Assembly: GCA_964653765.1 (NCBI GenBank)
Contig: CAZZGQ010000001.1
Location: 5,456-69,455 of the forward strand
DNA from: an uncultured Elusimicrobia bacterium
Lineage (GTDB): Bacteria > Elusimicrobiota > Elusimicrobia > UBA1565 > UBA9628
Length of the DNA: 64,000 bases
Reading direction: 5' to 3'
Positions 10,158-56,699 of this stretch are shown in pieces. A program made the position numbers and the translations under genes. The notes under the pieces are model-generated. The model saw only the letters and a list, made by a program, of their open reading frames with translations, ran no database searches and was not told the DNA's origin. How positions within the stretch are numbered: position 1 is the first letter of the stretch; each line of letters begins with the position of its first letter.

Positions 10158-10276
10158 AGGGACGCGAACATCGGTACGATCAAGCGTGCCAGGATGGCGG
10201 CCCGACCACCCAGTTCCTCCGGAAAATGATCCGGACCCTTGCCGACAGGAGATTGGACCATTTCAGCATGGAGTCT

Positions 10277-29099: not shown

Positions 29100-30509
29100 T
29101 TACTCCACGCAGCAGCTCATGTGGCGCACGTCGCGCTTAAAGGCTTGCGCGGCGATCTTGACGACCTCGGAGTAGGTCGGAAAAACGTGGACCAGGTCGA
29201 TGAGGTCGGAGGCCTTGAGGCCGTGCTGGATGGCGAGGGCCGGCTCATGGATGAGCTCGGCGGCGTTGGGCGAGATGACGTGAAAGCCCAGGACCTTGCC
29301 GTCCTTGGGATGGATCACCATCTTCGCGTAGCCGCGCAGCTCGTTGGTGATAGCGGCCTTGGACACGTACTTGAGCTCGACGCCGCGGCAGTCGCAAGCG
29401 CCGAAGCGCTCGATCGCCTGGGCCTCCGTGAGTCCGACCACGGCGATCTGCGGATCGGTGAAGACGGCGGCCGGCACGGCCTCGTAGTTGATCGTGAGCT
29501 TCTGGCCGCCCAACGCGTTCTTGACGGCGTTGGCGCCCTCGCGCGCGCCGACGGTCTCGAGCCACGGCGGCCCGGCCACGTCTCCGGCCGCGTAGACGTT
29601 GCCCGCGCGGGTGCGCAGGGTCTCGTCGACCTCGACGAAGCCGTTCTTGTCCGCCTTGAGGCCCACGGAGGACAGGTTCAGGTCCTCGGAGTTTCCTTTG
29701 ACCCCGACGGCGACAAACAGCTTCTCGGCGCGGAACTCGCGCGGCTTGCCGTCCACCTCCCCGGCCAAGACGACCTCCCGCCCTTCCTGACGGACGGCCT
29801 TGGGGGTCATCTTGGCGCACAGCTCGATGCCGTCTTCCTTAAAGACGTCCTCGATCACGCGCGAGACCTCTGGCTCGGTGAGCGAAAACGGCCGGTCGAG
29901 AGCCTCGACGCAGGCGATCTTCGTGCCGAAGCGGGCGAACATCTGGGCGACCTCGAGGCCGGTCGGCCCGGCGCCGATAACGATCATGCTCTTCGGCATT
30001 TCCCTCAAATCGAAGGCCGCGATGTTGTCGAGCACCGAGCCGGGCGCCAACGTCTCCAGCCCGGGCAGGAGCAACGGCTTGTTCGAGGAACCCGTGGCGA
30101 GGAGCACGTATTCGGCCTCGAAGAGCCGGTTGTCCGCCCGGATCCGCCCGGGGCCGTCCAGGCGCGCTCTCTTCTCGACGAGCTCTACGTGCTTGAAGCC
30201 GCGCATGATCTTCTCGTATTTGGCCTCGCGGCTAGCGTGGACGATCTCTTCCTTTTCGGCGATAGCCTCGGGAAACGAGAACTCCGGTGCCCGGCACTTG
30301 ATGGCCCGGAAGCGCGGCTTGAGGACGCGCCGGCGGTCAAAGCCCGCCTCCAGCAGGACTTTGCTCGGCACGCAGCCCACGTTGACGCAGGTCCCGCCCA
30401 GCGGCAGGCCTTTGTTGAAGACGACGGTCTTCGAGCCAAGCTCGTCGGCCGCCGCGGCGGCCGCGAACGCCGCGCCCCCTCCCCCGATGATGGCCAAGTC
30501 GTAGCTCAA
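29100..30509 (-). CDS. merA: Mercuric reductase MerA (core enzyme without N-terminal HMA domain)
   Basis: TTG start 5 nt after GAGGAGGGA. FAD site LGGTCVNVGCVPSK. C-terminal Cys pair ...RHMSCCVE. Start overlaps the stop of the upstream small mer transport gene. Confidence 0.8.
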   Translation of the reverse strand: MSYDLAIIGGGGAAFAAAAAADELGSKTVVFNKGLPLGGTCVNVGCVPSKVLLEAGFDRRRVLKPRFRAIKCRAPEFSFPEAIAEKEEIVHASREAKYEKIMRGFKHVELVEKRARLDGPGRIRADNRLFEAEYVLLATGSSNKPLLLPGLETLAPGSVLDNIAAFDLREMPKSMIVIGAGPTGLEVAQMFARFGTKIACVEALDRPFSLTEPEVSRVIEDVFKEDGIELCAKMTPKAVRQEGREVVLAGEVDGKPREFRAEKLFVAVGVKGNSEDLNLSSVGLKADKNGFVEVDETLRTRAGNVYAAGDVAGPPWLETVGAREGANAVKNALGGQKLTINYEAVPAAVFTDPQIAVVGLTEAQAIERFGACDCRGVELKYVSKAAITNELRGYAKMVIHPKDGKVLGFHVISPNAAELIHEPALAIQHGLKASDLIDLVHVFPTYSEVVKIAAQAFKRDVRHMSCCVE

Positions 30510-30709
30510 GGCTCCCTCCTCGTCCAGAGCCAAAACGCCAGGATCACGAGCCCGAACAGAACGGCGCCGATCCACCAGCGTCCGCTGGCCAATCCCGCCG
30601 CTCCTCCCGCGAGCAGCGCGGGAAAGAAGGCGCAGCAGATGACGCCCACAATGGCGATCACACCCGCCGCGATCGCGGCGAAAACGCCCAGCTTGCGCCC
30701 ATCGGCCAT
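30506..30709 (-). CDS. Small two-TM mercury-transport-like protein (MerF/MerT-like CC motif)
   Basis: 67 aa. TM1 IVGVICCAFFPALL (vicinal Cys + Pro) then a second TM. RBS CAGGAGGA. Divergent from merR. Confidence 0.5.
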   Translation of the reverse strand: MADGRKLGVFAAIAAGVIAIVGVICCAFFPALLAGGAAGLASGRWWIGAVLFGLVILAFWLWTRREP

Positions 30710-30809
30710 GAGTCCTCCTGTAGCGCCAGTTTATAGCCTGTACCACGGTCCAAGGTCGGTAGCGGACGAGTCTCCCCTCCGTCACGTCCTCGCGACGGGC
30801 GCAAAGGTC

Positions 30810-30842
30810 TTGACTCTATACCTGGGTATAGGCTGTAACATG
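30810..30842 (+). promoter_or_regulatory. MerR-type promoter: TTGACT - 19-bp spacer containing dyad CTATACC-tg-GGTATAG - GTAACA, ending at the merR start
   Basis: Seen in sequence. A 19-bp spacer with a centred dyad is the hallmark of MerR-family-regulated promoters. Confidence 0.55.
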
Positions 30843-31259
30843 AGGATGAACATGAACGAGAGTGTGACGATCGGAAGCGTGGCAAAGGCGGCGGGCGTGA
30901 ACATACAAACGGTGCGCTATTACGAGCGCCGGCGCCTGCTCGAGCCGGCGAGGCGCCTTGATTCCGGCTATCGCCTCTATTCCGGAGAGGCGGTGCGAAA
31001 GCTGCGCTTCATCAAGAACGCGCAGGCGCTGGGATTTTCTCTCGAGGAGATCCGCTCGCTGCTGCGGCTGCGCAGCGGCGGCCCGGCGTCGTGCGAGCGG
31101 GTCCGGCGCAGGGCGGCCAAGCATGCGGCGGACGTGCGCGAACGCATCGCGCGTCTGCGCGGCATGGAGCGGGTGCTCCGGCAGTTGATTCGGACCTGCC
31201 AGACGCGCGGCCGGACGGACGAGTGCCCGATCCTGAAGAGTCTCGAGGGAGAGAAATGA
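30840..31259 (+). CDS. merR: MerR-family Hg(II)-responsive transcriptional regulator
   Basis: TIGSVAKAAGVNIQTVRYYERRRLLEP HTH. Cys residues at MerR-like positions (CERV, CQTRGRTDECP). Three possible ATGs at 30840, 30846 and 30852. Confidence 0.85.
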   Translation: MRMNMNESVTIGSVAKAAGVNIQTVRYYERRRLLEPARRLDSGYRLYSGEAVRKLRFIKNAQALGFSLEEIRSLLRLRSGGPASCERVRRRAAKHAADVRERIARLRGMERVLRQLIRTCQTRGRTDECPILKSLEGEK

Positions 31260-31858
31260 ACAAGAACAGAATCCTCGGCCTATCCGCGGTGCTGTCCGCG
31301 GGGTTAGCCTCCATATGCTGCGTCGGGCCGCTGCTGGTCACGGCGCTGGGCTTAGGCAGCCTGCGTCTGGCGGCGGGTCTAGCCCGGTACCGGAGCTATT
31401 TCCTGGCGCTGACCGGCGCGATCTTGGCGGCGGGCTTTTACTTCGCCTATCGCAAACGTCCGGTGCAATGCGCGGATGGAAGCTGCCGGGTAGCCTCGGC
31501 GAGCCGCGTGGCGAAGGCGGGCCTGTGGCTGGCGACAGCCTTGGCCGCCGCCGTCGCGACGTTCCCGAACTGGTCGGCCCTCGCGCTGAGGAAAAGCGGG
31601 CCGGTGATCCCGGCGGGCGCTCAGGTCCTGACGCTCAATGTCTCCGGAATGGACTGCGCCGCTTGCGCCCCGGGCATCGAGAAGTCGGTCGAGAGAGTTC
31701 CAGGCGTGCTCTCGGCGCGCGTGGATTTCGAGCACGCCCGGGCAACGGTCGTCACCGACGGCAAGGCCGATCCCCGAGCGGTCGTCGCGTCGGTCAAATC
31801 GGCGGGTTATCAGGCGACCGTCGTCGGACTGGGTGCAAATGGAAAACCCCGCTCTTGA
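31256..31858 (+). CDS. merT: MerT-MerP fusion (mercuric transport protein with C-terminal HMA domain)
   Basis: ATGA overlap with the merR stop. TM1 SICCVGPLLVTALG (MerT). C-terminal GMDCAACAPGIEKSVERVPGV (GMxCxxC HMA). Confidence 0.8.
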   Translation: MNKNRILGLSAVLSAGLASICCVGPLLVTALGLGSLRLAAGLARYRSYFLALTGAILAAGFYFAYRKRPVQCADGSCRVASASRVAKAGLWLATALAAAVATFPNWSALALRKSGPVIPAGAQVLTLNVSGMDCAACAPGIEKSVERVPGVLSARVDFEHARATVVTDGKADPRAVVASVKSAGYQATVVGLGANGKPRS

Positions 31859-32333
31859 CCACGAGGCGTGTTGCAAGACCGTCGGCGGGGCTTGCCGGGC
31901 GCAGACCGGAATAGACACCTGCCCCCGTTGCGGGAAACAGGGCCGCAAGGTCGGCGGCGTCACTTTGGATCACCATCTGTCCCCTGCCGCGCGAGCCCGC
32001 TTCGGGCAACTCGCTGGATTCTGTCCAAATCCCAAATGCGCGGTCGTCTACTTCGACGGTAAGGCTGTCGCCTTGAGAGGCGAGACCGTGCTGCCCGTCA
32101 CCCAGAAGGACTCCAGCGACGACGTCCACGTCTGCTACTGCTTCAACTTCAAGCGTTCGGATATCCGGCGCGACCTCGTCCAGAAGGGAAGCACCGACAT
32201 CCCGCAGCAGGTCAAGAAAGGCATCGCCGAGGGCCGCTGCGACTGCGAGCGCAAGAATCCCCAGGGGGCCTGCTGCCTCGGGAACATCGCCGCGGCCGTC
32301 AAGGCCATTCAAGCGGAGGCACGCCGAAAATGA
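31839..32333 (+). CDS. Cys-rich metal-binding protein: N-terminal zinc-ribbon-like CxxC...CxxxxC plus C-terminal BFD-like [2Fe-2S]-type Cys motif
   Basis: 14 Cys in 164 aa: CCKTVGGAC, CPRCGKQG, FCPNPKC, VCYCFNFKRSDIRRDL...RCDCERKNPQGACCLGN. Overlaps the merTP 3' end by 20 nt. Confidence 0.5.
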   Translation: MENPALDHEACCKTVGGACRAQTGIDTCPRCGKQGRKVGGVTLDHHLSPAARARFGQLAGFCPNPKCAVVYFDGKAVALRGETVLPVTQKDSSDDVHVCYCFNFKRSDIRRDLVQKGSTDIPQQVKKGIAEGRCDCERKNPQGACCLGNIAAAVKAIQAEARRK

Positions 32334-32396
32334 GAGGCGGCTGGGTCCTGGCGGTGCTCTCGCTCCTTATCATGCTGCTCTGCTGTCTGAGGGACC

Positions 32397-32921
32397 TCAG
32401 TAGACGATGATCCGGTCGGCCGAATCGAACAATTCGACCATCTTCTTCAACGGCAGTGGCGTCACGGCCGGAGCCACCTTGGCCGGATCGATCTTGTAGA
32501 GCAGCATCATCGTCTTGTTCCCGTAGATCTCGACGCCTTTGCCCTTCAAGAAGTCGAGGTACTCGCCATAGTCATGCGGGACTTGCTCGAGCGGCAGCCC
32601 CATCTGCTCCGCGAGGCTCTGCCGCTCCCGGTCCGGGAGCTTCGCCCGGTCCATCGCGTCGGTCTTCGAGCGCTTGTGAAGAAGCCCGTATCCCCGTGTC
32701 ACGGAGGTGACCGCGCTCGCGTCGAAGAGTATCGTGACCTTATGACCGCTGGCGAGCTCCGCGAGGGCCACGTTGGGCGCGGCGCAAATCTGGGCGTCGT
32801 CCTTCGACAGAGCGGTCTTGACGTGGATCAATATTCGTTTGTCGTTCGATTGCGCCACGGCGGCGCCTCCCGTGGACAGAATGAATGCAGCCAACGGTAT
32901 CGCGATCCAGGGTTTTTGCAT
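32397..32921 (-). CDS. Periplasmic DsrE/DsrF-like family protein
   Basis: Signal peptide MQKPWIAIPLAAFILSTGGAAVA. ILIHVKT... DsrE-like fold signature. Expressed from a MerR-type promoter. Confidence 0.4.
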   Translation of the reverse strand: MQKPWIAIPLAAFILSTGGAAVAQSNDKRILIHVKTALSKDDAQICAAPNVALAELASGHKVTILFDASAVTSVTRGYGLLHKRSKTDAMDRAKLPDRERQSLAEQMGLPLEQVPHDYGEYLDFLKGKGVEIYGNKTMMLLYKIDPAKVAPAVTPLPLKKMVELFDSADRIIVY

Positions 32922-32924
32922 AGC

Positions 32925-33016
32925 GCACAGTTTACACCGAGGACCATGGTATAGAGTCAAGTAAAAATCTCGTGATCATGCCCTTGACTCTATACTTAGG
33001 TATAGGCTGTATTATT
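32925..33016. promoter_or_regulatory. Divergent pair of MerR-type promoters sharing the CTATACC half-site
   Basis: Plus strand 32982-33016: TTGACT-ctatacttaggtataggct-GTATTA, with dyad CTATAC-ttag-GTATAG. Minus strand 32960-32925: TTGACT-ctataccatggtcctcggt-GTAAAC. Same -35/operator as the merR promoter at 30810. Confidence 0.5.
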
Positions 33017-33021
33017 GAAGT

Positions 33022-33696
33022 ATGAAGATACAGTTGCTTTGTTTCGAAGGCTGCCCGAACATGGAGACAGCCCGCGCGAATCTGCGGGCGGCATTGGCGA
33101 GAGTTGGACTCGCCGCGCGCTGGGAGGAGGTCGACCTGCGCTCGGCCGGCTGTCCGGCACGATTGCGGGGATTCCCCTCCCCCACCGTGCTCGTTGACGG
33201 CGCAGATGTCTTCACCGGCGCGAAAGAGCAGCCGGGTCAGAGCGCGTGCCGCTTCGGGGGAGCGCCGGGCGTCGGGCCGATCGCGGCGGCGCTCAAGGCC
33301 CGTTCTTGGTCCTCGATGCTCGCCCCGCTTCCGGCCGCGCTGGCCGGTCTTCTGCCCGCCACGTTCTGCCCCGCCTGCTATCCGGCTCTGGGCGGACTGC
33401 TCGGCGCGATCGGGTTAGGCGCCTATGCCGAGCGGCTGCTCGCGCCGCTGACTCTCGTCCTGCTCGCCGCGGCGTTGGTCGGCCTCGGGTTTGAAGGACG
33501 GCGCGGCGGCGACTATCGCCCTCTGGCGCTCGGCGGGTTTGGCGCGGCAGCCATGTACGCGGGCCAGTTCCTGATCGCGTCGGCGCTCGTCAAGTTCGCC
33601 GGCATCGCGGTGCTTTTGGCGGCGTCGTTCTGGAACGTTTTCCCGCGCCTCAAGCGAAGCCGCGACAGCTGCCCCGCTTGCGCGGAAGGGAGGTGA
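33022..33696 (+). CDS. merC: Thioredoxin-like domain fused to MerC-type mercury transporter
   Basis: N-terminus LLCFEGCPN...PTVLVDGADV (Trx-like). C-terminus TFCPACYPALGGLLGAIGLGAY matches MerC MGCAACFPALASFGAAIGLGFL. A second CPAC lies near the C-terminus. Confidence 0.6.
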   Translation: MKIQLLCFEGCPNMETARANLRAALARVGLAARWEEVDLRSAGCPARLRGFPSPTVLVDGADVFTGAKEQPGQSACRFGGAPGVGPIAAALKARSWSSMLAPLPAALAGLLPATFCPACYPALGGLLGAIGLGAYAERLLAPLTLVLLAAALVGLGFEGRRGGDYRPLALGGFGAAAMYAGQFLIASALVKFAGIAVLLAASFWNVFPRLKRSRDSCPACAEGR

Positions 33697-33700
33697 CGCG

Positions 33701-33976
33701 ATGGCGAAGCGAACGGTGGAAGTGTTCACGGCCGGCTGTCCCGTGTGTGAGGACGCCGTCAAAAAGGTCAACTCGCTCGCGTGCCCGGACTGCGAGGTCA
33801 AGATATACGACCTCAACCGGGGTTGCGCGACCAACGAGTGCCGCGAGAGGGGCGAGAAGTACGGCGTCAAGCGCCTTCCGGCGGTGGCGGTCGACGGCAA
33901 GCTGCTCGACTGCTGCAGCCAGGGTGGCGTGGACGTCAAGAAGCTGCAGGCGGCCGGCGTGGGCAGGAGGGCGTGA
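33701..33976 (+). CDS. Small thioredoxin/glutaredoxin-like protein (CPVC active site, additional CC pair)
   Basis: [18 protein letters not shown]...[16 protein letters not shown], Thioredoxin_3-like. Confidence 0.5.
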
Positions 33977-34053
33977 AGCGCGGCCCGGCGAAAGCCGGGC
34001 CGCCGAATTGTGACGAGGCCGGCACGCGTTCGCCGTCGCCGCGCTCTGGGGAA

Positions 34054-36351
34054 ATGACTTCAATGGGCGGAGTGATTGGACAATTGGCCAAGGACCCCGT
34101 GTGCGGGATGAACGTTGATCCGAAGACGACACCCTATCGGCTCGCGCACGGCGGCTCCGATTGCTACTTCTGCGGGAAGCGCTGTCTGGAACGCTTCCAA
34201 GCGGCTCCGGAGCGGTTCCTAACTGCACGCCCGGCAGAGCCACGAGTGGGCGGCGAATACACGTGCCCGATGCATCCCGAGGTCCGTCAGCAAGGCCCCG
34301 GCGCCTGCTCGCTTTGCGGCATGGCCCTCGAACCGCTCGAAGTCTCGGTCGAGGAGCCGGAGAACGCCGAACTGGCCGACATGCGCCGGCGCTTCTTCGT
34401 CAGCGCCGCTCTCACGGTGCCGCTCGTCGGGCTCGCCATGGCGGACATGGCGACGCGCTTGCCGCTTTCGGCGCGGCCGCGCTCGATCATAGAGCTGGCG
34501 CTCGCGTCTCCGGTGGTGCTCTGGGGCGGAAAGCCCTTCTTCGAGCGCGGCTGGGCATCCGTCGTCACCCGTCATCTCAACATGTTCACGCTGATCGCGA
34601 TGGGCACCGCCGCCGCCTACCTGTTCAGCCTGGGAGCCGTCATCGCGCCGAGCCTGTTTCCCCCCTCCTTCCGCACGGCCGAAGGCCAGGTGCCGGTCTA
34701 CTTCGAGGCCGCAGCCGTCATCACGACGCTCGTGCTCTTGGGCCAGGTCCTCGAGATCAAGGCGCGCAGCAGGACGACGAGCGCCATCCGCTCGCTGCTT
34801 GGCATGGCGCCGAAGACGGCGCGCCTGGTCGAGGCCCAGGGCGAGCGCAACGTGCCGCTCGCCGAGGTCGTCAAGGGCCAGACGCTGCGGGTTCGGCCGG
34901 GTGAGCGCGTCCCGGTCGACGGCTGCATCATCGAAGGGCGCAGCTCCATCGACGAGTCGATGATCACGGGCGAGCCGATACCAGCCGAGCACGGCCAAGG
35001 AGAGCAGGTCAAGGCTGGGACGATCAACGGGACGGGGAGCTTCCTCATGCGCGCCGAGAACGTGGGCAGCGAGACGCTGCTCGCCCACATCGTGCGAATG
35101 GTGGGCGAAGCGCAGCGCTCCCGCGCACCGATCCAGAGGCTAGCCGACGTCGCGGCGTCGTACTTCGTGCCGGCGGTGGTCGCTGTGGCCGCTGCCGCTT
35201 TCATCGGCTGGACGCTCTTCGGCCCCGCGCCCAAGGCGCTTCACGGCCTGGTCTCGGCCGTCGCCGTCCTTCTCATCGCCTGCCCGTGCGCGCTAGGATT
35301 GGCCACGCCCATGTCCATCATGGTCGGCACGGGCCTTGGAGCCACGCGAGGCATCCTCATCAAGGACGCCGAAGCCCTCGAGACCTTCGGCCGCATCGAC
35401 ACGCTCGTCATCGACAAGACCGGAACGCTGACCGAAGGCAAGCCCCGGCTGACCGCCGTATCCCCGATCTCGCCGTTCACCGACGACGAGGCCCTGCGCG
35501 CGGCGGCAAGCCTCGAGCGTTACAGCGAGCATCCCCTCGGCCAAGCGATTGCTGCGGAAGCCGAGCGGCGAAAGCTCAGGCCGGGCTCCGTTGAAGGCTT
35601 CGAGTCCCGAACGGGCCTGGGCATCACCGGCCGTCTCGACGGTCGGCGCGTCGCGGTCGGAAGCCCGGCGCTCATGCGCGAGCTCCGAGTGGACGACCGC
35701 GCGATGGCCGACGCGGCGGCCAAGCTGCGGGCCGAAGGCCAGACCGCGCTTTTCGTCGCCGTGGACGGACAGCCCGCCGGCGTGCTCGGCGTCTCCGACC
35801 CTGTCAAGGAGAGCAGCGCGGAGGCGATCGCCGCTCTGCACCGCGAGGGCGTCCGCGTCATCATGATGACCGGCGATCATCCCGCGAGCGCCGAAGCGGT
35901 GGCCAAGCGCCTCGGCATCGACGACGTGCATGCCGAGGTGCTGCCGCAGGACAAGGCGCGCGTCGTCCAAGAGCTTCAGCGCCAGGGCCGCAAGGTCGCC
36001 ATGGCCGGCGACGGGATCAACGACGCGCCCGCGCTCTCCCAGGCCGACGTGGGCGTCGCCATGGGTACGGGCACCGATGTGGCCATCGAGAGCGCGGGGA
36101 TCACGCTCGTCAAAGGCGACCTGCGGGCGCTGTCGCGCGCGCGCCGGCTTAGCCGCGCGACGCTCAGAAACATCAAGCAGAACCTGTTCTTGGCCTTCGT
36201 CTACAACGGCCTCGGCATCCCCATCGCGGCGGGGGCGCTTTATCCGGTCTTCGGTATCCTGCTCAGCCCAATGATCGCGGCCGCGGCCATGACCTTCAGT
36301 TCCTTGTCTGTCGTGGGAAACGCTCTCAGGCTGCGGAGGCTCGCCCTATAG
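34054..36351 (+). CDS. P1B-type heavy-metal-translocating ATPase with N-terminal YHS/TRASH-like Cys domains (CPC transmembrane motif)
   Basis: DPVCGMNVD...YFCGKRC, CPMHPE, CSLCGM. TM6 [29 protein letters not shown]. 765 aa. Confidence 0.9.
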
Positions 36352-36379: not shown

Positions 36380-36445
36380 GTGGACACTGCCGCTTCGTGG
36401 ACAGCGCCGCTGCGCTTGGACGGCTCTTCGACCCGTGCGCCGGCA
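36380..36445 (+). repeat. ~65-bp fragment of the 5' end of the ~500-bp repeated element (copy D)
   Basis: Matches GTGGACAGCGCCGCTGCGCTTGGACGGCTCTTCGACCCG of copy B (39323-39375). Confidence 0.6.
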
Positions 36446-36567
36446 CCTTCGACGGCATCATCCTCACCGGGATACTGGCCGCCTACCTCGCTTAGCTCTA
36501 GCTTCGGCGACCGACGCTCAGGACCGCATCGGAAGCCCGCACCAAGCACGCGCGCCGTGCGAAAAAC

Positions 36568-36774
36568 CTACGCGTTCTTATGCCGCCCGTCCTCCATCAC
36601 CGGCTCCGTGTTCATTCCGCCGCAATCTGGGCACTCTTGAGGGATCGGCTTAGGATTCTTGAGCTTGCCGGTAGCTGGGTCGATATCGCCCACCTCGGCG
36701 AATGTAGCGTCCTCCGGCAAATCACTGAACTCCAGCTCGCAGTCGCGACAGCGGTACATCTTCAATATCCCCAT
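36568..36774 (-). CDS. FmdB-family zinc-ribbon protein
   Basis: MYRCRDCELEFSDL...ECPDCGG shows FmdB-like CxxC...CxxC spacing. Confidence 0.45.
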   Translation of the reverse strand: MGILKMYRCRDCELEFSDLPEDATFAEVGDIDPATGKLKNPKPIPQECPDCGGMNTEPVMEDGRHKNA

Positions 36775-36983
36775 GACGCCTCCCACGTCCCGCCTCCGAT
36801 GGCCAAGGATGGGGCAGCCTGAGACAAATTTCAAGCCCGCGCGCCGGCTTCTCATGGAACCAATCGGCATCTCGATCGTAGACGAGAAGACGATTTACGT
36901 TCTACGTCACGCTCGATCCGGCGAACGATCGCAACGCTGCCGTCGCTCCAAGGCCGCGGCATTTGTCAGACTCTTGTGCGCCA

Positions 36984-37832
36984 ATGCTCCGAATCTGTCC
37001 CGGCCTTCTACTTCTTGTCATCTTCTCAGGCTGCGCCTCATGGCGGAAGCACGGCGTACGCGTCCCCCCACCTCAGAAACTGAGGGTGGCGATCCTTCCC
37101 CTGGACCTCGATTTCAAGGTGAAGAGCCCAGCGGACCTGGAGACGGTCGTCTCTTCCGGGACCGTCGCGAAGTCGGAACAGAAGCGGCAGGCGGATGCAA
37201 TCAAGGCGCGGCTCAAAGAAGAGCTTGCGGCGGCATTCGAGCTGCGGGTGTCGTCGAGCTATATCCTCAGCCCGATCTCCCACGTCGACGTTGAAAGGGC
37301 CATGGTGGCGTTGAACATCAGCACGACTGCGGCGCTTTCCCCCACGCAGTATCAAGAGCTCGCCCGAAACCTGAATGCCGACGCTGTCTTGAGGGTCAAG
37401 GTTCATGGATACGGACGGATCAAGAAAAGCTGGCTGCTATTTCTCTGGGGGACCAGCTTCGTGGAAGGAGGGGCTCAGGGCGTGGTCGTCGCCGAGGCGG
37501 CGGCGAACGTCTGGGCGGCGGCCGCCGTCGCCGCCGAGGATGTCGTTCAAGAAGCGTTCGAGTGGTTCGGAGGCGGGTATTTGTTCAACCGCTATTATGC
37601 TCCCGTCATCATCGAGGGAGATCTCTACAGCGGGCGAACCGGCAAGAACATTTGGGGACGCTGGTTCGTCGTGACGAAGAACAAGAAGGCGGCCAAGAAG
37701 CTCTCGAAGGCCGAGCAAAAGAAGAGGGAGGTCCTGCTTTTCCTGACGTTTCAAAAGGCGCGCGATGAGATGATCAAGAAACTCGAGAAAACGGTGCTCA
37801 AGAACGAGGAAGTGGAGACGGGAAGTCAATGA
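36984..37832 (+). CDS. Hypothetical lipoprotein with Lys-rich C-terminal tail
   Basis: Lipobox LLVIFSGCAS. Confidence 0.45.
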   Translation: MLRICPGLLLLVIFSGCASWRKHGVRVPPPQKLRVAILPLDLDFKVKSPADLETVVSSGTVAKSEQKRQADAIKARLKEELAAAFELRVSSSYILSPISHVDVERAMVALNISTTAALSPTQYQELARNLNADAVLRVKVHGYGRIKKSWLLFLWGTSFVEGGAQGVVVAEAAANVWAAAAVAAEDVVQEAFEWFGGGYLFNRYYAPVIIEGDLYSGRTGKNIWGRWFVVTKNKKAAKKLSKAEQKKREVLLFLTFQKARDEMIKKLEKTVLKNEEVETGSQ

Positions 37833-37949
37833 GCGCCGCGCTCGTAAAGGCCCTGGTGGCGCTGGCGCAAGCCGGCTGCTTGTCTTGGGCTCGGCGCCGC
37901 GAATAGCAAGATACCGACAGGTCGTCTCCCGTCAACTTGAGCCGATCTC

Positions 37950-38443
37950 AGATGCAACGGTGGATACCGCCGCGGCTGTGGACGGCGTGGACAACACTCG
38001 CGCGTTGACGCACCCCGCCCACAGCCTCTTGAATTGCGCCCTGCCGGGGGCGGATCGTTCCGCCGGCGCTCCTCCCTGCTTACGGCCGCAGGGACCACGC
38101 AATTCACCGTACCCACCGCCGACGGTGGCGGTTCTCTCCGCTTCGTCCGGCTGATTCCGACTTCCTCTTCGTGCTCTCTCCGTTTTCGATGATGTTCGCA
38201 CCTCCCTTCGGGCCGGCCAGGAGCCAAGCCGGCCGCGCTGCGGCATAAACGAGTCAACCCCCTCCGGCGATCCGAAAGTTCGGCCCAACCCCCGCCGTGC
38301 CCCAAACTTTCGGACGGCTCGATCCTCGAGGCCGCCAGCGTGCTTCGCGCGGGCGATCGCCCCGTGGGGACCCACTGTTTATTCCTCGCTTCGGCCGTCT
38401 TGCTCGGCGGCCCTCACCCTCCGGGCGGGGTGGAGGTGCGAAC
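37950..38443 (+). repeat. ~500-bp conserved structured element, copy A (ends at the ATG of a small gene)
   Basis: Aligns along its length with 39305-39819 and 42228-42722. Contains hairpins CCGAAagTTCGG and CCACCGccgaCGGTGG. Confidence 0.75.
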
Positions 38444-38644
38444 ATGCACAAAAACTACGGGAGCACGAAGCGGTTCGGAAACGACGGCTGGCTCTTGACC
38501 ATCCAGATCAAGGGCACGACGCGCGATGAGGCGGCGAAGGCCTTGCACAAGGTCTGCCGGCTCATTAGGGCGGGCACGATGTCGGGGGCCGACAGCACGG
38601 ACGCCCAGGCGTATATCTTCAAGTTCCAGGAGGCGGCCCGATGA
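38444..38644 (+). CDS. Small protein with conserved N-terminal peptide (MxKxxxxxKRFGxxGW)
   Basis: 66 aa. N-terminus MHKNYGSTKRFGNDGW is shared with the genes starting at 39820 and 42723. ATGA coupling to the downstream RadC-like gene. Confidence 0.5.
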   Translation: MHKNYGSTKRFGNDGWLLTIQIKGTTRDEAAKALHKVCRLIRAGTMSGADSTDAQAYIFKFQEAAR

Positions 38645-39060
38645 AAATCCGCGTGATGGTCGTGCGGGAGGGCAAGCCGTCGAAGGCCGAACTGAACAAC
38701 CCGCTGGCGGTCTTCAACTTCATGAAGCGCCGGGCTCGCGGGCTCGACCGGGAGCATTTCTGGCGGATTGATGTCGATTCGAGGTCAAAGCCGATTTCCG
38801 TCGACACGGTCTCGGTCGGGACCCTTTCGGCAAGCCTCGTGCATCCGAGAGAATTCTTCCGGCCGGCGCTGGTCTTGCCGACGGCTGGCGTTATCGCGAT
38901 CCATAATCACCCTTCGGGCGAGACGACGCCGAGTCCGGAAGACAAGGACGCGACGAACCGGCTGCGCCGTGCTGGTGAGCTTCTCGGCGTTCCCTTGTTG
39001 GACCACGTGATCGTCTCGGACACGTCGTTCTTCAGCTTCAAGGAAGCCGGGCTGCTCTAG
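38641..39060 (+). CDS. RadC-like JAB/MPN-domain protein (UPF0758)
   Basis: HNHPSGETTPSPEDKDATNRL is the JAMM motif region of RadC/YeeS. Confidence 0.75.
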   Translation: MKIRVMVVREGKPSKAELNNPLAVFNFMKRRARGLDREHFWRIDVDSRSKPISVDTVSVGTLSASLVHPREFFRPALVLPTAGVIAIHNHPSGETTPSPEDKDATNRLRRAGELLGVPLLDHVIVSDTSFFSFKEAGLL

Positions 39061-39070
39061 GAGGCGATCA

Positions 39071-39274
39071 ATGAAACGCGATGACCAGGGCTGGCTGATC
39101 TACAACGCAAGCGATAGCGTCTACTTCGATCCGAGGACCTTCGCGACGAAGGAAGAGGCCTGGGCCGCAGCGGAAGAGCATCGCGCCGCCTACGCGACCC
39201 AAGGCTACTATCTGACGGCCGACGGCTTCCGAATCGATCCGGCCGACATCGAGCTCGAGATCGTGCCTGCCTGA
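39071..39274 (+). CDS. Small hypothetical protein
   Basis: 67 aa ORF with RBS-like GGAGG upstream. Confidence 0.3.
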   Translation: MKRDDQGWLIYNASDSVYFDPRTFATKEEAWAAAEEHRAAYATQGYYLTADGFRIDPADIELEIVPA

Positions 39275-39304
39275 CCATGCGGACTCGATACCCAACGGGC
39301 TTTA

Positions 39305-39819
39305 CGTGAAGCGGTGGATACCGCCGCTCCTGTGGACAGCGCCGCTGCGCTTGGACGGCTCTTCGACCCGCCCACTCTGCCCACAGGAGCTTGGACAACG
39401 CCCCTGCGGGGGCGGCGCGTTCCGCCGACGATCCTCCCCGCATGAGGCCGCGGGGACCGCGTTGCCCACCGTACCCACCGCCGACGGCGGCGGTTTCCTT
39501 CTGCTTCTTCCCCCACGGCGCCATTCCTCCTTCCCGACTTCCCTTTTCCGCTCTCGCAGGTCTTTTTCATTTGCCCCCTCGCCTCAGGACCCCAGGAGCG
39601 AAGACCCGATCGCTGCGGCTGAAACGGTCACCCCCTCCGGCGATCCGAAAATTCGGCCCAACCCCCGCCGTAGCCCCAAATTTTCGGACTGCTCGCTGCC
39701 GCGGGCCGCCAGGCCGATGGAATCGGCGGCGGTCGCCCGGTGGGGACCCACCATTTGAATCCTCGCTCAACGGATCTTCCTCGGGGTTCCTTCGCCCTCC
39801 GGGAGTGCGGGGGTGGCAA
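39305..39819 (+). repeat. ~500-bp conserved structured element, copy B
   Basis: See copy A. Hairpin variant CCGCCGaCGGCGG preserves base-pairing. Confidence 0.75.
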
Positions 39820-39966
39820 ATGAAAAAGACCTGCGAGAGCGCAAAACGGTTCGGGAAGGCGGAATGGCTGACGGCGCAACGGAAGCTTGGAACGCTCGAA
39901 CCGATCAAGCACGACGGGGCCGGAAGGGCCGCGAAGGCGATGCTGAGCGGCTACGTCTGGCGCTGA
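39820..39966 (+). CDS. Small protein with conserved N-terminal peptide (MKKTCESAKRFGKAEW)
   Basis: 48 aa. N-terminus homologous to the genes at 38444 and 42723. Confidence 0.45.
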   Translation: MKKTCESAKRFGKAEWLTAQRKLGTLEPIKHDGAGRAAKAMLSGYVWR

Positions 39967-39974
39967 GGTTGAAC

Positions 39975-40205
39975 ATGACCACCAAGGAGAAAACCATGAG
40001 CAAGAAGAACGAAGCGAAGAAGGACAGCCAGGCTCGGGAGGAGGAGTTCAAGGGCAAGCCGGTCCTCGGACTCTACCGGAGCGCGGACGACACGTACCCG
40101 CTCAAGTTCGGGCTGTCGAAGGCGGGGCTCATCCTCGCGCACGTCGAGGAGATAAAGGCCTTCCAGGCCAAGCACTCCGGCAAGGAGGCTTCCGCGACCG
40201 CCTGA
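39975..40205 (+). CDS. Small Lys-rich hypothetical protein
   Basis: 76 aa. Followed by the 75-bp structured repeat. Confidence 0.35.
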   Translation: MTTKEKTMSKKNEAKKDSQAREEEFKGKPVLGLYRSADDTYPLKFGLSKAGLILAHVEEIKAFQAKHSGKEASATA

Positions 40206-40275
40206 TTCGACCAGGGCCCTCGGGGTTTCGGCTCCGAGGGTCCGAGCCGGGTCAGGCCCGGAAATCAAACGCATG
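40195..40275 (+). repeat. ~75-bp structured repeat (copy 1): TGAtTCGACCAGGGCCC..hairpins..GGGTCAGGCCCGGAA
   Basis: Paired with the copy at 40565-40645. Stems retained with compensatory differences. Confidence 0.6.
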
Positions 40276-40575
40276 GAGGCATCACCGATGAAAACCGGAA
40301 AGGCGTTGGGCTTCAAGAAGGGCGACTTCGTTCACACCGGGGCGTTCCCCGGCATCATCATCAGCGACGTGCACTCGTTCGCGCCGTGTTGCGAGGTCTG
40401 GGGCTTCGAGCATGAGATGGGCTCGGCCTACGCCGAGGACCTGACGGCGATGACCTGGGAGGAGTTCAAGGCCGTGGCCGAGCGCTACGGCTTCGACGGG
40501 AGCGCCTACTCCGAGGTGGCCAAGGCCGCGATCCGGCAAGCGCGGGACGGCGCGGAGGTCGCCGCGACGGCCTGA
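40273..40575 (+). CDS. Small hypothetical protein (CC motif)
   Basis: 100 aa. Ends in ...VAATA* immediately before the second 75-bp repeat. Confidence 0.35.
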   Translation: MEASPMKTGKALGFKKGDFVHTGAFPGIIISDVHSFAPCCEVWGFEHEMGSAYAEDLTAMTWEEFKAVAERYGFDGSAYSEVAKAAIRQARDGAEVAATA

Positions 40576-40645
40576 ATCGACCAGGGCCCTTCGAGGCGAC
40601 TCGGAGGGCCCGCGCCGGGTCAGGCCCGGAATCAAAACACATGGA
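40565..40645 (+). repeat. ~75-bp structured repeat (copy 2)
   Basis: See 40195-40275. Confidence 0.6.
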
Positions 40646-42170
40646 GAACACGATGACCAACCAAGAAACGAAGCAGGAAGCCGTCGCCGTCAAGGAGGTC
40701 GCGCTCGAAAGCGTGGCCATCGAGAAGATCGAGATCGTCGAGAACGTCCGCAAGCACTTCGACGCCGCCGCCATGAAGGAACTGACCGAGAGCATCCGGC
40801 ACAACGGCATCCTTGTGCCCTTGCTCCTGGCCAAGAACGGCAAGCCCGGCGTCTACCGCCTCATCGCAGGGGAGCGCCGCTTGCGGGCAGCGAAGGCGCT
40901 GGACTTGAAGAGCGTCCCGGCGCAGATCGTGGAGGCCGACGCCGCCAAGCTCGAAGAGTTGCAAGTCCTGGAGAACCTCCACCGGGCCGACCTCGGGCCC
41001 ATCGAGGAGGCGCGCGCCTTCAAGAAGCTCCTCGACGGCGGCAAACACACCATCGAGGGCTTGGCGAAGCAAGTGGACAAGTCGGTCAAGTACGTCACGC
41101 GCTCCATCCGGCTCTTGGAGCTTCCGAAGAAGGCCGTCCTGGCCATCGAGAAGGGCACGATCACGCCCGAGCATGGCCACCAACTCCTGCGCGTCCCGGA
41201 GGATCGGCGCGAGAGCTTGGTCGAGTACGCGCTGACGCCCAAGTGGGGCGGCGTCATGCGCACCATCCACGAGCTGGTCTCCGAGATCGAGAACCGGGTC
41301 GAGAAGGACCTGGCGAAGGCTTGCTTTCCGAAGGACCGGGAGTACGCAGGCCAGACGGCTTGCTTGGCCTGCCCGTTCAACACCGGCAATCAGAACGTCC
41401 TCTTCGAAGGCGCGACGGCGGGCAAATGCACCAACAGCGGGTGCTTCACGAAGAAAACCAACCTCTTCTTGAAGGAGTTCAAGGAGAAAGCGGTCAAGCA
41501 GTTCAACGGCCTCAAGTGCGTCGGCATGGGCTCGGCGGGATGGAACGGCTTGCGCGAGGTCAAAGGAGCCGTCGTGCTGACCGCCGAGGAGGCGAAGAGC
41601 CCGAAGGTCAAGGCGATGATCGACAAGGAGCCCGAAAAGTTCGGCTTCGCCGTGGTCAAGCCGTCGGCCTACAGCGGCGCGAAGGCTCCGAGCGCGGTCC
41701 TGGTCTGCCAGGACAGGGAGCTTCTCGACAAGGAAATCCGCAAGCCCGCCGAGAGCGGCGAGCGACCGCTGACGCAGGAGGATCGGGAGCGCGAGCAGTT
41801 CCTCGAAGAGGCCAAGGTCCGGGCGCTGTTCGCCGAAGGAGCGCGAGTCCTCAAGAGCATCAAGAAAAAGCACCTGATCGGCATCGTCCTGGCTCTGCCC
41901 GGCACGGACGCCGCCTACGAGGCTATCGGCGTGGCGCAAGCGGAGAACCTCCCGGCAGCGCTGGCGAAGCTGTCGGAGAAAGACCTCCTGCGGCTGGCCT
42001 ACCTGTGCGCCATCGACGCCTACAACCTCGACGAGGAGTTCGAGGAGATCGGCGTGAGCGTTCCGAAGGTCCGCAGAGAGGCCCGCAAGGCGGCGCTGGC
42101 CGAGTGGGAGCAGGCCCTCAAGGCCAAGGCCGAGAAGCCCGAGGAGAAGGAGGTAGCCGCGACCAAGTAA
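40641..42170 (+). CDS. ParB/Spo0J-like N-terminal (nuclease/partition) domain protein with long Cys- and Lys-rich C-terminal region
   Basis: ESIRHNGILVPLLL...YRLIAGERRLRAAKAL is a ParB-N motif. 509 aa. Confidence 0.7.
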   Translation: MENTMTNQETKQEAVAVKEVALESVAIEKIEIVENVRKHFDAAAMKELTESIRHNGILVPLLLAKNGKPGVYRLIAGERRLRAAKALDLKSVPAQIVEADAAKLEELQVLENLHRADLGPIEEARAFKKLLDGGKHTIEGLAKQVDKSVKYVTRSIRLLELPKKAVLAIEKGTITPEHGHQLLRVPEDRRESLVEYALTPKWGGVMRTIHELVSEIENRVEKDLAKACFPKDREYAGQTACLACPFNTGNQNVLFEGATAGKCTNSGCFTKKTNLFLKEFKEKAVKQFNGLKCVGMGSAGWNGLREVKGAVVLTAEEAKSPKVKAMIDKEPEKFGFAVVKPSAYSGAKAPSAVLVCQDRELLDKEIRKPAESGERPLTQEDREREQFLEEAKVRALFAEGARVLKSIKKKHLIGIVLALPGTDAAYEAIGVAQAENLPAALAKLSEKDLLRLAYLCAIDAYNLDEEFEEIGVSVPKVRREARKAALAEWEQALKAKAEKPEEKEVAATK

Positions 42171-42227
42171 GAGGCCCGTTGACCTGGCCCATCCGGGCGA
42201 CCGGGTGGGCCAGAGTGAGCGGGTCTA

Positions 42228-42722
42228 CGACGCGGTGATACCGCCGCGCCTATGGACGGCGTGGACGAGCCTTCGGCATCGACGCACTCCGCCCACAGGC
42301 GCTTGAATTGCGGCCTGCGGGGGCGGTGCGTTCCGCCGGCGATCCTCCCTGCGGACGGCGGCAGGGACCCCGCAATTCACCGTACCCACCGCTGGCGGCG
42401 GCGGGTTCTTCTCTACTTCTTTCGCACGGCGTCGTCCTTGCCGACTTCCCGCTCTCGCCTCCTCGGCTTTTCATGTTCCACCCCACCTCAGGCCCCAGGA
42501 GTGAAGTCCACCTCGCTGCGGCTGAAACGGTTACCCCCTCCGACGATCCGAAAATTTGGCCCAACCCCCGCCGTAGCCCCTAATTTCCGGACTGCTCTCT
42601 GCCGCGAGGCCGCCGGCTCGGCTGTGCCGAGGGCGGTCGTCCTGTGGGGCCCCAGCCATTTGATCCTCGCTCGACGGATCTTCCTCGGGCGCCTTCGCCC
42701 TTCGGGTGGGCGGAGGTGGACC
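42228..42722 (+). repeat. ~500-bp conserved structured element, copy C
   Basis: See copy A. Hairpin variant CCGCtgGCGG. Confidence 0.75.
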
Positions 42723-43307
42723 ATGGAAAAGACCTACGGCGGCGCAAAACGGTTCAGCAAGGACGGCAACGGCACGGCGGCCAGGAACGAGACTCTGGAG
42801 AGCTTCATCCGGGATGCGGGCGACAAGGCGTATCGCTTCGCCTACGACCTCTCGGGCAACAGCGACGAGGCGCGGGAGCTTGTGCAAGAGACCTGCTATC
42901 GTCTCGCGCGGAGTTGGAAGAGCTTTCAGCCGTCGAGGCCGGTGAGTTCTTGGTTCTTCACGGTCCTGCGCAACGCCTTCCTTGACTCGCGACGGCGATT
43001 CGAGCGGCGCAAGGTCGTGTCGTTGGACCTGCCTCTGGAGGACGAGGACGGCGCGTCGTTCGAGGGCATTATCCCCGACGGCGCGGAAGGCATCCCGGAG
43101 AGCCTGGAGCGCGTCGAGACGGCCCAGACGGTAAGGCGGGCCATGAGGGGGTTGACGCGAGAGCATCGGGCGGTCTTGGAGCTGTGCGACATGGGCGGCA
43201 TGGCATACGAAGAGGTCGCGCGGAGCCTTGGCGTTTCAGTGGGGACGGTCCGCTCGCGCATCTTCTGGGCGCGGGCGGCTTTGCGCGGACAACTGGCGGC
43301 ATCTTAA
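42723..43307 (+). CDS. ECF-subfamily sigma-70 factor carrying the conserved repeat-associated N-terminal peptide
   Basis: N-terminus MEKTYGGAKRFSKDG. Region 2 (YRFAYDLSGNSDEARELVQET). Region 4 (EHRAVLELCDMGGMAYEEVARSLGVSVGTVRSRIFWARAAL). Confidence 0.75.
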   Translation: MEKTYGGAKRFSKDGNGTAARNETLESFIRDAGDKAYRFAYDLSGNSDEARELVQETCYRLARSWKSFQPSRPVSSWFFTVLRNAFLDSRRRFERRKVVSLDLPLEDEDGASFEGIIPDGAEGIPESLERVETAQTVRRAMRGLTREHRAVLELCDMGGMAYEEVARSLGVSVGTVRSRIFWARAALRGQLAAS

Positions 43308-43322
43308 CGAGGAGACAATCAC

Positions 43323-43493
43323 ATGAACGAGCAAGAGAGGGAACCGACGGGGCTGTGGGAGGACGCGGAGATCATTTCGGTCTACACGCGCGCGCAGGCG
43401 TTGGAGGACGGCGTTCTCGTGGCAAGGCAGGCTGTAAGCAACCGCGCCTACGCTCTTAGGGATGAAGCGCTCGCGGCAAGTGTTCCCGAATAA
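43323..43493 (+). CDS. Small ORF (56 aa) in the anti-sigma position after the ECF sigma gene
   Basis: ATG 15 nt after the sigma gene stop, AGGAGA RBS. Too short for the ORF track. Speculative. Confidence 0.25.
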   Translation: MNEQEREPTGLWEDAEIISVYTRAQALEDGVLVARQAVSNRAYALRDEALAASVPE

Positions 43494-43923
43494 CCCGTTC
43501 CGCTTGCCGATGGCGGTTGAACAACTGCGCGTGCAGCTTCGCGTCGGCGATGACCCTCCGACCGTCCAGGTTGTCGAGAAGATCCGCGAGTTTGACCCGC
43601 ATCGCGGCGACGTTCCCCGATTGGACCAGACGCCTGATATAGCGGCGATACGTGAGCCTGGTAGGCCGGGTGAGCAGGCGGACCGCGATGAGGACCTCCG
43701 CGTGAAACCCCGCCTTCTTGAGATCAGCAAAGCTCGTCGCGGTGTCCTCTACGACGTCGTGCAGGAGCGCAGCATGCTTTTCGATCATCGGCGCCGTACG
43801 CCCGAGGCGCGCCATGACGCGCACGGGATGCCGCCAATAGGGTTTGCCGCCTATGTCCTTCTGTCCCTTGTGGGCGCGTTTGATGAACTCGATCGCTGCC
43901 GAGACCGTTGAGATCTTCGCCAT
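43456..43923 (-). CDS. HD-domain phosphohydrolase (small alarmone (p)ppGpp hydrolase-like)
   Basis: AAIEFIKRAHKGQKDIGGKPYWRHPVRV...HDVVEDT is the RelA/SpoT HD motif. Start at the internal ATG (MAKIST). Confidence 0.7.
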   Translation of the reverse strand: MAKISTVSAAIEFIKRAHKGQKDIGGKPYWRHPVRVMARLGRTAPMIEKHAALLHDVVEDTATSFADLKKAGFHAEVLIAVRLLTRPTRLTYRRYIRRLVQSGNVAAMRVKLADLLDNLDGRRVIADAKLHAQLFNRHRQAERVIREHLPRALHP

Positions 43924-56422: not shown

Positions 56423-56699
56423 CAGCCCATCACCAAAGCATTTTCAATCGGCTGCTCTCCTGAAAATACTCCAAGTCCTCCCTGCCCGTACACGACGATA
56501 ATTCGACGGCCCGGTGTTGGCACCGAAATTGCTCCCGGAATCCGGACGGCCGCGGAGGACCGTCCGCCGTGTAGCCCCGCGAATACGGCGCGGGGGCATC
56601 CACGACCTGGCCGCAACCGGGTGAGACCACGGGAAACGATGAGACATCGTCTCTCGTTCTGCGCCACGGTGGCGGGAGACGGGAGGCAGGAGAGACCGT

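Follow-up and report, generated by a model that had tools for sequence, protein, structure and literature searches.

A two-module structured element at the head of each operon of a plasmid-derived island in Elusimicrobia: candidate mRNA leader with an opposite-strand folding preference

What does one and the same sequence of about 500 nt do in front of three operons whose genes are otherwise unrelated, and does it act as a structured RNA or as structured single-stranded DNA (ssDNA)? The question is posed by a 64,000-nt stretch of DNA, here called the window, from an uncultured Elusimicrobia bacterium (GenBank assembly GCA_964653765.1, contig CAZZGQ010000001.1, positions 5,456 to 69,455), in which a small, plasmid-derived island carries three copies of the element, A, B and C, all on the (+) strand and each composed of two modules, D1 and D2. 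The two modules occur independently of each other and each is supported by covariation, and the element represents a previously uncatalogued family of structured elements without a match to any Rfam family. An earlier note on this DNA, made from the letters alone, had argued for RNA or ssDNA structure rather than plain duplication and had offered three explanations, namely ssDNA promoters of the Frpo/ssi type, leaders dependent on an extracytoplasmic function (ECF) sigma factor, and a long cis-regulatory RNA. The last of these is the best-supported reading: we propose, as a tentative preference that falls somewhat short of even confidence, that the element is a cis-acting mRNA leader that would gate the translation, and probably also the transcription, of the first gene of each operon.

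Copies of the element and their relatives

Copies A, B and C align end to end, as had been noticed, with a mean column identity of 82% and pairwise identities of 80-87%, and their positions, from searches with the profile and the covariance model, are 37953-38493, 39307-39869 and 42228-42772, respectively. Each contains GGAGG followed, after 6-8 nt, by an ATG (at 38444, 39820 and 42723). The copies had been thought to end exactly at this ATG; their similarity in fact extends ~45-50 nt past it, inside the open reading frames (ORFs). The additional fragment described in the note is real, and it is shorter than the 65 bp (36380-36445) assigned to it: the match covers ~56 nt directly 3' of the stop codon of a P-type ATPase gene, and positions 36397-36435 are 100% identical to positions 39332-39370 of copy B. 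The parts of the element in the window are as follows.

36380-36435 (+): orphan 5' fragment of D1, B-type variant, ~56 nt; alignment with the D1 copies breaks after ...CGACCCG
37953-38139 (+): D1 of copy A, a four-way junction with a GC hairpin at 38113-38131 and a T-rich tail; covariance model R1, 177.8 bits, E 5e-36
38151-38493 (+): D2 of copy A, an inverted repeat; cognate arm duplex -64.1 kcal/mol, the best partner in its own row and column of the arm comparison
39307-39501 (+): D1 of copy B, GC hairpin at ~39473-39494, tail TTTCCTTCT; R1, 177 bits; terminator-like in the consensus scan
39515-39869 (+): D2 of copy B, arms at ~39515-39583 and ~39806-39869, ATG at 39820; an inverted repeat, 92% complementary; cognate duplex -100.8 kcal/mol
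42228-42412 (+): D1 of copy C, GC hairpin at ~42386-42404; R1, 160.6 bits; terminator-like site in the consensus scan
42426-42772 (+): D2 of copy C, arms at ~42426-42489 and ~42706-42772, ATG at 42723; placed by alignment; cognate arm duplex -60.3 kcal/mol

The family recovered with a profile of the copies numbers ~60 full or partial copies. The homologues outside this genome on which the idea of a genuine element depended are found in at least 10 Elusimicrobia-type metagenome-assembled genomes (MAGs) and in ~34 metagenome contigs, so that the element is neither a chance resemblance nor a local triplication. Sixteen loci come from an exact-pattern scan of one genome per species, mostly groundwater Elusimicrobia MAGs, and a further 40 from a metagenome scan; labels such as L016 or L030 denote loci from these other genomes or metagenome contigs. 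Pattern matches in MAGs labelled Planctomycetota, Verrucomicrobiales and Streptomyces have no profile match and were rejected as chance, as were all 15 hits of a scan of viral contigs with the 16-mer core, one of them a look-alike inside a CCA-adding-enzyme gene.

The covariance-model search of Rfam 15 (cmscan) that the note had suggested returned no family, either at gathering thresholds or at E<=5, the single hit being a chance one of 23 bits to P35. The models of the radC (RF01754) and STAXI (RF01728) motifs give no match even at E<=5, and blastn in distant mode finds no match to the element among 72,556 plasmids and 50,697 phages. The element belongs to none of the sequence-defined families with which it was compared.

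The high identity of the window copies could also be the mark of a recent local duplication of a promoter or 5' region that has no structural function. This is scarcely credible in the face of the homologues in other genomes, the compensatory changes in 53 of the 115 pairs of the two modules, the variable-length insertions at hairpin tips and the co-evolution of the helix arms; the covariation of D1 and D2, to which we now turn, refutes a plain duplication.

Two covarying modules and a leader peptide

Module D2 (~330 nt) folds as one long imperfect hairpin. Its outer helix of ~55 bp joins a pyrimidine-rich 5' arm (80% C+T; ~38151-38216 in copy A) to a purine-rich arm (72% A+G; ~38421-38493 in copy A) that includes the Shine-Dalgarno (SD) sequence (38432-38436), the ATG (38444) and ~15 codons, and within the pyrimidine arm lies CACCUCC, a mimic of the anti-SD sequence. 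The middle helix contains an invariant AUAAA/UUUAU segment, and the tip is branched, one of its hairpins carrying an invariant 26-nt loop, CGGCCCAACCCCCGCCGUAGCCCCAA (38281-38305 in copy A). The helix that encloses this loop, TCCGAAAGT/ACTTTCGGA, covaries across homologues, with the variants GAAAAU/AUUUUC, GGCGCU/AGCGCC, UAAAAC/GUUUUA and GGCGGC/GCCGCC; CCGAAagTTCGG, which the earlier note had placed in a different hairpin, is one half of it. The conserved structured core between the arms spans 230 nt, and the large variable-length insertions seen in some homologues are located at hairpin tips. A local CCUCCG/CGGAGG hairpin offers a second possible way to hide the SD sequence, and its variation consists mainly of sense-strand G-U pairs, with one C-A exception.

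Among the 68 pairs of D2, 32 show changes on both sides; 95.4% of the alignment cells are paired, compared with 42-57% when the partners are slid, and none of 500 shuffles reaches the observed values. Duplexes between cognate arms average -65.9 kcal/mol, compared with -46.3 kcal/mol for arms swapped between copies, and the best-pairing partner of an arm is usually the cognate one. Folded singly as RNA, the window copies have z-scores of -5.9 (A), -7.3 (B) and -0.45 (C). GGAGG, the 6-8 nt spacing, the ATG and an open frame are retained in all copies. A coding ORF within the element itself was considered and rejected: the lengths of the indels are not divisible by three, and the cluster of in-element ORFs is small. 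D2 occurs without D1 in L032, L039, L062, L030, L031, L037 and L051.

Module D1 (~185 nt; range 165-300 nt) folds as a four-way junction of ~165 nt whose closing helix, P1, is formed by GGUGGAUAC/GUACCCACC. On the 3' side of the junction follows a GC hairpin, CCACCGCC-loop-GGCGGCGG, with a T-rich tail. Hairpin and T-run are present after D1 in most copies (e.g., GUUUUUUCU), the tail is a clean T-run in many (e.g., GUUUUUUC), and the combination is the signature of an intrinsic terminator on the sense strand; the hairpin that the note had recognized from CCACCG/CGGTGG in one copy and CCGCCG/CGGCGG in another is real and corresponds to this structure. The segment CCACCGCC doubles as the 3' strand of P1 and the 5' arm of the GC hairpin, and in the folding models the two helices are mutually exclusive, as in the expression platforms of riboswitches; the mean energy difference between the P1 fold and the hairpin fold is -0.4 kcal/mol, with single copies differing by up to ~10 kcal/mol either way.

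Conservation begins abruptly at the base of the D1 stem, and D1-only units, found in L019, L017, L043, L037, L066 and L052, stop ~10 nt after the GC hairpin. A repeated motif within D1 comprises three GTGGA(C/T) and three CCCAC segments with a conserved A-C. Changes on both sides affect 21 of the 47 pairs, 94.7% of the cells are paired (37-58% with slid partners), and again 0 of 500 shuffles reach the observed values; this covariation indicates that D1 pairs as a single strand and is not merely a duplex binding site. The covariation in both modules thus bears out the contention that single-strand structure, rather than plain duplication, is at work here.

The operons that begin within the copies have the following gene content, which agrees with the gene calls in the earlier note (ORFs and Pfam matches).

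38444-39274 (+): operon A, a 66-aa leader-peptide protein, RadC (38641-39060) and a 67-aa protein (39071-39274)
39820-42170 (+): operon B, a 48-aa leader-peptide protein, 76-aa and 100-aa proteins and a ParB_N+HTH_ParB protein (40641-42170)
42723-43493 (+): operon C, an ECF sigma factor (42723-43307), with the leader peptide as its N-terminal extension, and a truncated DUF6573 protein (43323-43493)

In operon A the 66-aa ORF is ATGA-coupled to the RadC gene (Pfam match, E 3.9e-37), and the Pfam matches in operon C are to Sigma70_r2/r4_2 and DUF6573. Given that conservation runs ~45-50 nt into the ORFs, the three proteins share the N-terminal sequence M-x-K-x-[YC]-x-[SG]-x-KRF-G, and since the purine arm of the D2 helix spans the first ~15 codons, this shared peptide is the coding face of the helix. 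In other loci the peptide is fused in-frame to RadC (L016, L030, L031), to ParB (L050) and to the 100-aa family (L031), and several of the fusions have an obvious internal native start. Such fusions to unrelated proteins indicate that the peptide belongs to the element, and it travels with the element onto proteins as unrelated as ECF sigma factors, RadC, ParB-like proteins and small proteins.

Across the family, the genes most commonly found downstream of the element are an ECF sigma gene and then DUF6573, which is full-length in 15 loci. A second set consists of a 58- or 66-aa protein, RadC and a 63-70-aa protein, and a third of 48-aa, 76-aa and 100-aa proteins and a 505-aa ParB-like protein. 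The gene families of operon A recur beside copies in other loci, the gene order of operon B is repeated in L058, L057, L059, L075 and L026, and all island genes lie on one strand. Searches of the island proteins against PHROGs and PADLOC recognize only RadC, ParB and sigma, with no defence-system hit in PADLOC.

The island ECF sigma has no anti-sigma gene. Its distant homologues are RpoE-like in the three contexts examined and are followed by genes for a zf-HC2 anti-sigma factor and MucB/RseB, with only short upstream intergenic gaps of ~170-220 nt; model R1 detects no D1 in L077, L078 and L080, where D2 was not searched for. The nearest relatives outside the islands (L077, L078) possess zf-HC2 and MucB/RseB, which the island version has lost, and in the islands DUF6573 follows instead.

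Messenger RNA leader or single-stranded DNA

Because the SD sequence, the AUG and the early codons are meaningful only in an mRNA, a mechanism acting on the sense-strand RNA is favoured. Of the features of a riboswitch-like attenuator or translational leader, the element possesses a conserved junction fold supported by covariation and an expression platform made up of the overlap between P1 and the terminator and of the sequestration of the SD sequence. We propose that on the sense transcript D2 would hold translation of the first cistron off by default, by means of the ~55-bp helix over SD and AUG, and that the choice between P1 and the hairpin in D1 would act as a transcription attenuator or insulator. 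As there is no anti-sigma gene in the island, the output of its ECF sigma would be set at D2. Release would require a trigger that recognizes the invariant core, for example the 26-nt loop; this trigger might be a ligand or a protein, or the long stem might be cut in the manner of RNase III.

With riboswitch-type leaders and attenuators the element shares a conserved multi-stem junction in which a hairpin and U-run compete with the closing helix, an anti-SD segment that pairs with the SD sequence, and invariant unpaired nucleotides in the core. It differs from them in the length of its SD helix, which continues into the ORF, in its multiple copies within a mobile-type island and in having no known ligand. 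Another parallel comes from the transposase mRNAs of IS10 and IS50, in which base-pairing of the translation start region with an inverted repeat farther upstream keeps read-through transcripts from being translated. In the present element, too, an upstream arm pairs with the ribosome-binding site and start codon, although no internal promoter was found between the arms, which are far longer and enclose the 230-nt structured core.

Several observations weigh against a sense-strand RNA. A helix of -60 to -100 kcal/mol is far stronger than those of the known reversible SD-sequestering switches. In the element as a whole, the wobble pairs show no sense-strand bias (133 G-T vs. 123 A-C), and in D1 the expected bias is reversed, with 97 A-C and 9 G-U cells in the covariance-model alignment of 36 distinct copies. 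With RNA parameters, the bottom strand of D1 folds at z -4.2 and the sense strand at -2.4, the bottom strand being better in 24 of 26 copies; with DNA parameters, the corresponding values are -4.66 and -2.95 for D1 and -6.43 and -5.77 for D2 (bottom strand better in 18 of 26), and the folding energy of the bottom strand is lower in all 26 copies. The sense strand is C-rich (37% C vs. 30% G), a composition that is unusual for structured RNA. Judged both by G-U relative to A-C and by relative stability, the sense strand does not behave as the folding strand.

The reversed wobble of D1 has a narrow origin. As many as 75 of the A-C cells derive from three conserved sites in the repeated GTGGA/CCCAC motif and therefore represent few independent events, and these sites could be a recognition feature. 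The three in-helix mismatches, at D1 alignment columns 63:211, 81:116 and 131:202, alternate with A-U, which on the bottom strand would amount to a neutral G-U/A-U interchange, and the other conserved sense mismatches, C-C, C-U and U-U, become G-G, G-A and A-A there. The strand signature differs by module, with D1 favouring the bottom strand and D2 being balanced, with sense-type wobble at the SD hairpin. Counts of UNCG/GNRA tetraloops (28 vs. 17 and 29 vs. 30) do not discriminate between the strands.

Among the current readings, only one predicts folding of the bottom strand, namely that the element is an ssDNA element resembling Frpo/ssi, in which the single-stranded template would fold D1 and D2 and recruit RNA polymerase or a primosome. 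Establishment genes would then be expressed early after conjugative entry or rolling-circle transfer, and in the duplex state the D1 hairpin with its T-run and the D2 fold-back would silence read-through. Frpo and ssi are ssDNA stem-loop promoters of the leading regions of F and ColIb-P9 (Masai and Arai, 1997, as described in PMC9849209 and PMC11541004); their hallmarks are canonical -35/-10 boxes rebuilt in the fold, sequence similarity, a location in the leading region by oriT and genes templated by the transferred strand (PMC9849209; PMC11541004). The present element likewise provides several homologous long (~300 nt) stem-loops just upstream of co-oriented establishment-type genes, with 2-3 copies per island as for Frpo1/2 and ssi1-3 and with a Frpo-sized stem-loop in D2, and its best-folding strand is the template strand. 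The G-T, G-G and G-A apposed on that strand in place of the sense A-C, C-C and C-T, the abrupt onset of conservation at the base of the stem without a conserved upstream promoter and the plasmid-like genes are all in keeping with an ssDNA element; homologues of DUF6573 are encoded on 337 plasmids (161 typed as conjugative and 83 as mobilizable) and on no phage.

The first three hallmarks are nevertheless lacking. A consensus scan detects no sigma-70 site inside any copy on either strand, and a column-wise scan of the 26 aligned copies finds only covarying or variable stems or wrong spacing, so that boxes resembling TTGACA/TATAAT are neither conserved on either of the strands nor rebuilt in a stem, and the fold contains no UP element. 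The element has no similarity to any plasmid DNA. In the window and in the syntenic 20-kb loci, no relaxase, type IV secretion system, integrase or oriT-type context lies beside the island, although the contigs are incomplete and a link farther away may exist. The island occupies the same chromosomal site in related genomes. Its gene set (RadC, ParB-like, DUF6573) is plasmid-like, in agreement with the note. As regards the fourth hallmark, the island genes all lie on one strand and their template strand folds better, an arrangement that would be compatible with it. Also unlike Frpo/ssi, the element comprises ~500 nt in two modules and its stem includes SD, ATG and ~15 codons, which a promoter has no reason to cover; the terminator-like hairpin with the T-run behind it and the SD hairpin with its G-U changes both have the character of sense-strand RNA. 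With the first three hallmarks absent, the element is not a member of the Frpo/ssi family, and we consider an ssDNA element unlikely; what keeps the ssDNA idea alive as a mechanism is the better folding of the bottom strand, above all in D1, and the fact that DUF6573 is a plasmid gene. The suggestion of an ECF-sigma-dependent leader is not supported as it stood, in that ECF-type motifs (GGAAC...CGTC/TCnAA), inspected by eye and not scanned systematically, were seen only at wrong or variable spacing, as were sigma-54 motifs.

The difference in strand signature between the modules and their separate occurrence in D1-only and D2-only loci could also mean that D2 is a sense mRNA leader, whereas D1 acts separately, either from the opposite strand, as ssDNA or antisense RNA, or as duplex DNA in which the GTGGA(C/T) and CCCAC repeats, with their conserved A-C, bind a protein. 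Neither a promoter nor a terminator of a bottom-strand RNA turned up in scans, the sense-strand T-run is immediately followed by the end of the D1 unit, and the single-strand pairing of D1 speaks against a role as a duplex site only; such a division of labour is similarly doubtful.

An RNA leader and an ssDNA site might, finally, be two states of the same element. D1 and D2 on the template strand would serve as a non-canonical ssDNA initiation site without sigma-70 boxes, giving a burst of the ECF sigma, RadC and the ParB-like protein, and in the duplex state the RNA would terminate at D1 and fold back over the ribosome-binding site at D2, leaving the island silent. We regard such a single-strand-stage switch as a rather unlikely arrangement.

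The closest known analogues of the element, apart from Frpo/ssi, riboswitch-type leaders and IS10-type fold-back inhibition, are the radC and STAXI motifs. The radC motif is associated with radC and other DNA-handling genes. It is listed as a 5' cis-regulatory candidate in Proteobacteria (PMC2864571; Weinberg et al., 2010), and STAXI is a tandem motif found near ssb, integrases, topoisomerases and antirestriction genes, for which the same ambiguity between RNA and ssDNA has been discussed (PMC2864571). Unlike both motifs, the present element is much larger, belongs to a different phylum and contains a translation start, and it is not matched by their covariance models.

The island and its surroundings

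The islands are arrays of the form (D1-D2-genes)n on a single strand, some of which close with a D1-only copy and some of which start with a D2-only copy, and the order of the modules differs between genomes. The upstream flanks of D1 are mutually unrelated, comprising gene ends, a MerR-type divergent promoter and AT-rich promoter-like DNA (L017, L022), as expected of a leader that lies behind different promoters or inside operons. In L020 (~6700-6790) and L061 (~1870-1950), a divergent MerR-family gene and a palindromic operator (…TATACCTAAGTATAG…) are found immediately upstream of D1, which would place some copies behind a promoter of the MerR type.

This architecture invites comparison with the attC sites of integrons, which are imperfect palindromes of 57-141 bp with R/L boxes and a GTTRRRY consensus, lie 3' of a promoterless ORF and have an IntI-type integrase beside them. 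D1 copies could be single-strand sites of a comparable kind, flanking modules of D2 plus genes and allowing their shuffling or excision. Arrays often closed by a D1-only copy, the variable module order, the orphan D1 fragment at the island edge in the window and the fusions of the leader peptide to unrelated genes, which imply recombination within the element, would all fit, as would the bottom-strand folding preference, a property of attC as well. The DUF1874 motif sets a precedent for a complex structured motif in consecutive intergenic regions of a co-oriented array (PMC5737381). Against this, D1 is 3-4 times longer than the published range of attC and is conserved in sequence, the element takes in the beginning of the gene that follows it, in contrast to a site placed behind an ORF, and no integron integrase is present, tyrosine-recombinase trios occurring in only two loci, in one of which the trio interrupts the element. 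A GTTRRRY box was not seen at the two candidate sites inspected, no systematic scan having been made, and D2 and the pairing of SD and ATG would be left unexplained. Altogether, a cassette boundary is a quite improbable role for D1.

In L021 (2368-5600) three consecutive tyrosine-recombinase-like genes (recombinase-in-trio) adjoin the sigma-DUF6573 module, and in L035 (377-4028) such a trio is inserted inside a D2 module near the ATG. An element copy in L021 is closely preceded by a tandem repeat of four nucleotides, (CTGG)n (~530-590). The ParB-like gene of L026 is split by a ~2.3-kb insertion (1992-4280) that codes for proteins of 514 aa and 253 aa, sizes that are IS21-like, and at its right edge (4283-4411) there is a fragment resembling P2 of D1 (62 bits).

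Two smaller features accompany the element in the window. A strong GC hairpin without a T-run, GGCCCATCCGGGCGACCGGGTGGGCC (42185-42212, +), lies between the stop codon of the ParB gene and copy C and is conserved in the related contig L026, upstream of the copy at 5553. A second repeated intergenic unit of ~100 nt occurs in operon B at 40178-40278 and 40548-40646 (+), between the 76-aa and 100-aa genes and between the 100-aa and ParB genes; the two copies are 84% identical, and the unit spans a gene end, GC hairpins, an SD sequence and an ATG.

The presence of DUF6573 on plasmids marks the gene set as one of the plasmid-establishment type; on plasmids its homologues are found among small genes arrayed in one direction, once with ssb nearby. 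In the window the island is flanked by metal-resistance and housekeeping genes. On the left, a mer/cop metal-resistance cluster (29100-36351) abuts the island and comprises a pyridine-nucleotide disulphide oxidoreductase that is possibly MerA-like, a CopZ-type zinc-binding protein, a MerC-like protein and a YHS/HMBD P-type ATPase; this cluster is absent from the syntenic locus L075, so that the left flank is variable. A related genome has this island too, with an EamA/efflux flank on one side and, on the other, the HD/SDR/PQ-loop/AdoHcy-hydrolase flank also seen in the window. In another genome it is flanked by genes for an OLD-type nuclease and a UvrD helicase and by a helicase-methylase pair. 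In our reading, the former two may be a Gabija-like pairing.

Elsewhere in the window, two known RNA families score above their gathering thresholds, a 2dG-II purine riboswitch aptamer (RF03165, 74.4 bits; 56564-56635, +) upstream of a 127-aa ORF (56700-57083) and the nhaA-I RNA motif (RF03057, 42.8 bits; 10192-10238, -). A single 1514-aa ORF with AcrB/ACR_tran and OEP domains (12110-16654, +) looks, from its domain content, like an RND pump fused to an outer-membrane factor, and positions 22867-23724 (+) hold a gene for a RiPP-modification enzyme of the MbnB/TglH/ChrH family (E 1.9e-107).

An element of ~500 nt with strong covariation and no counterpart in Rfam thus heads each operon of a plasmid-derived island, in a phylum that has been little studied. 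It explains why unrelated proteins have an N-terminal peptide in common, this peptide being the coding half of a helix, and it suggests a route of control for an ECF sigma that lacks an anti-sigma partner. At the same time, its sense-strand features, the sequestration of SD and AUG and the hairpin with a U-run, conflict with the folding preference of the bottom strand, which makes the element, like the radC, STAXI and DUF1874 motifs, a test case for telling structured RNA from structured ssDNA. The question bears on gene expression at the ssDNA stage outside the plasmids of Proteobacteria and, if the single-strand-stage switch were true, a candidate phylum would possess a Frpo-like mechanism with a built-in off-state at the RNA level.

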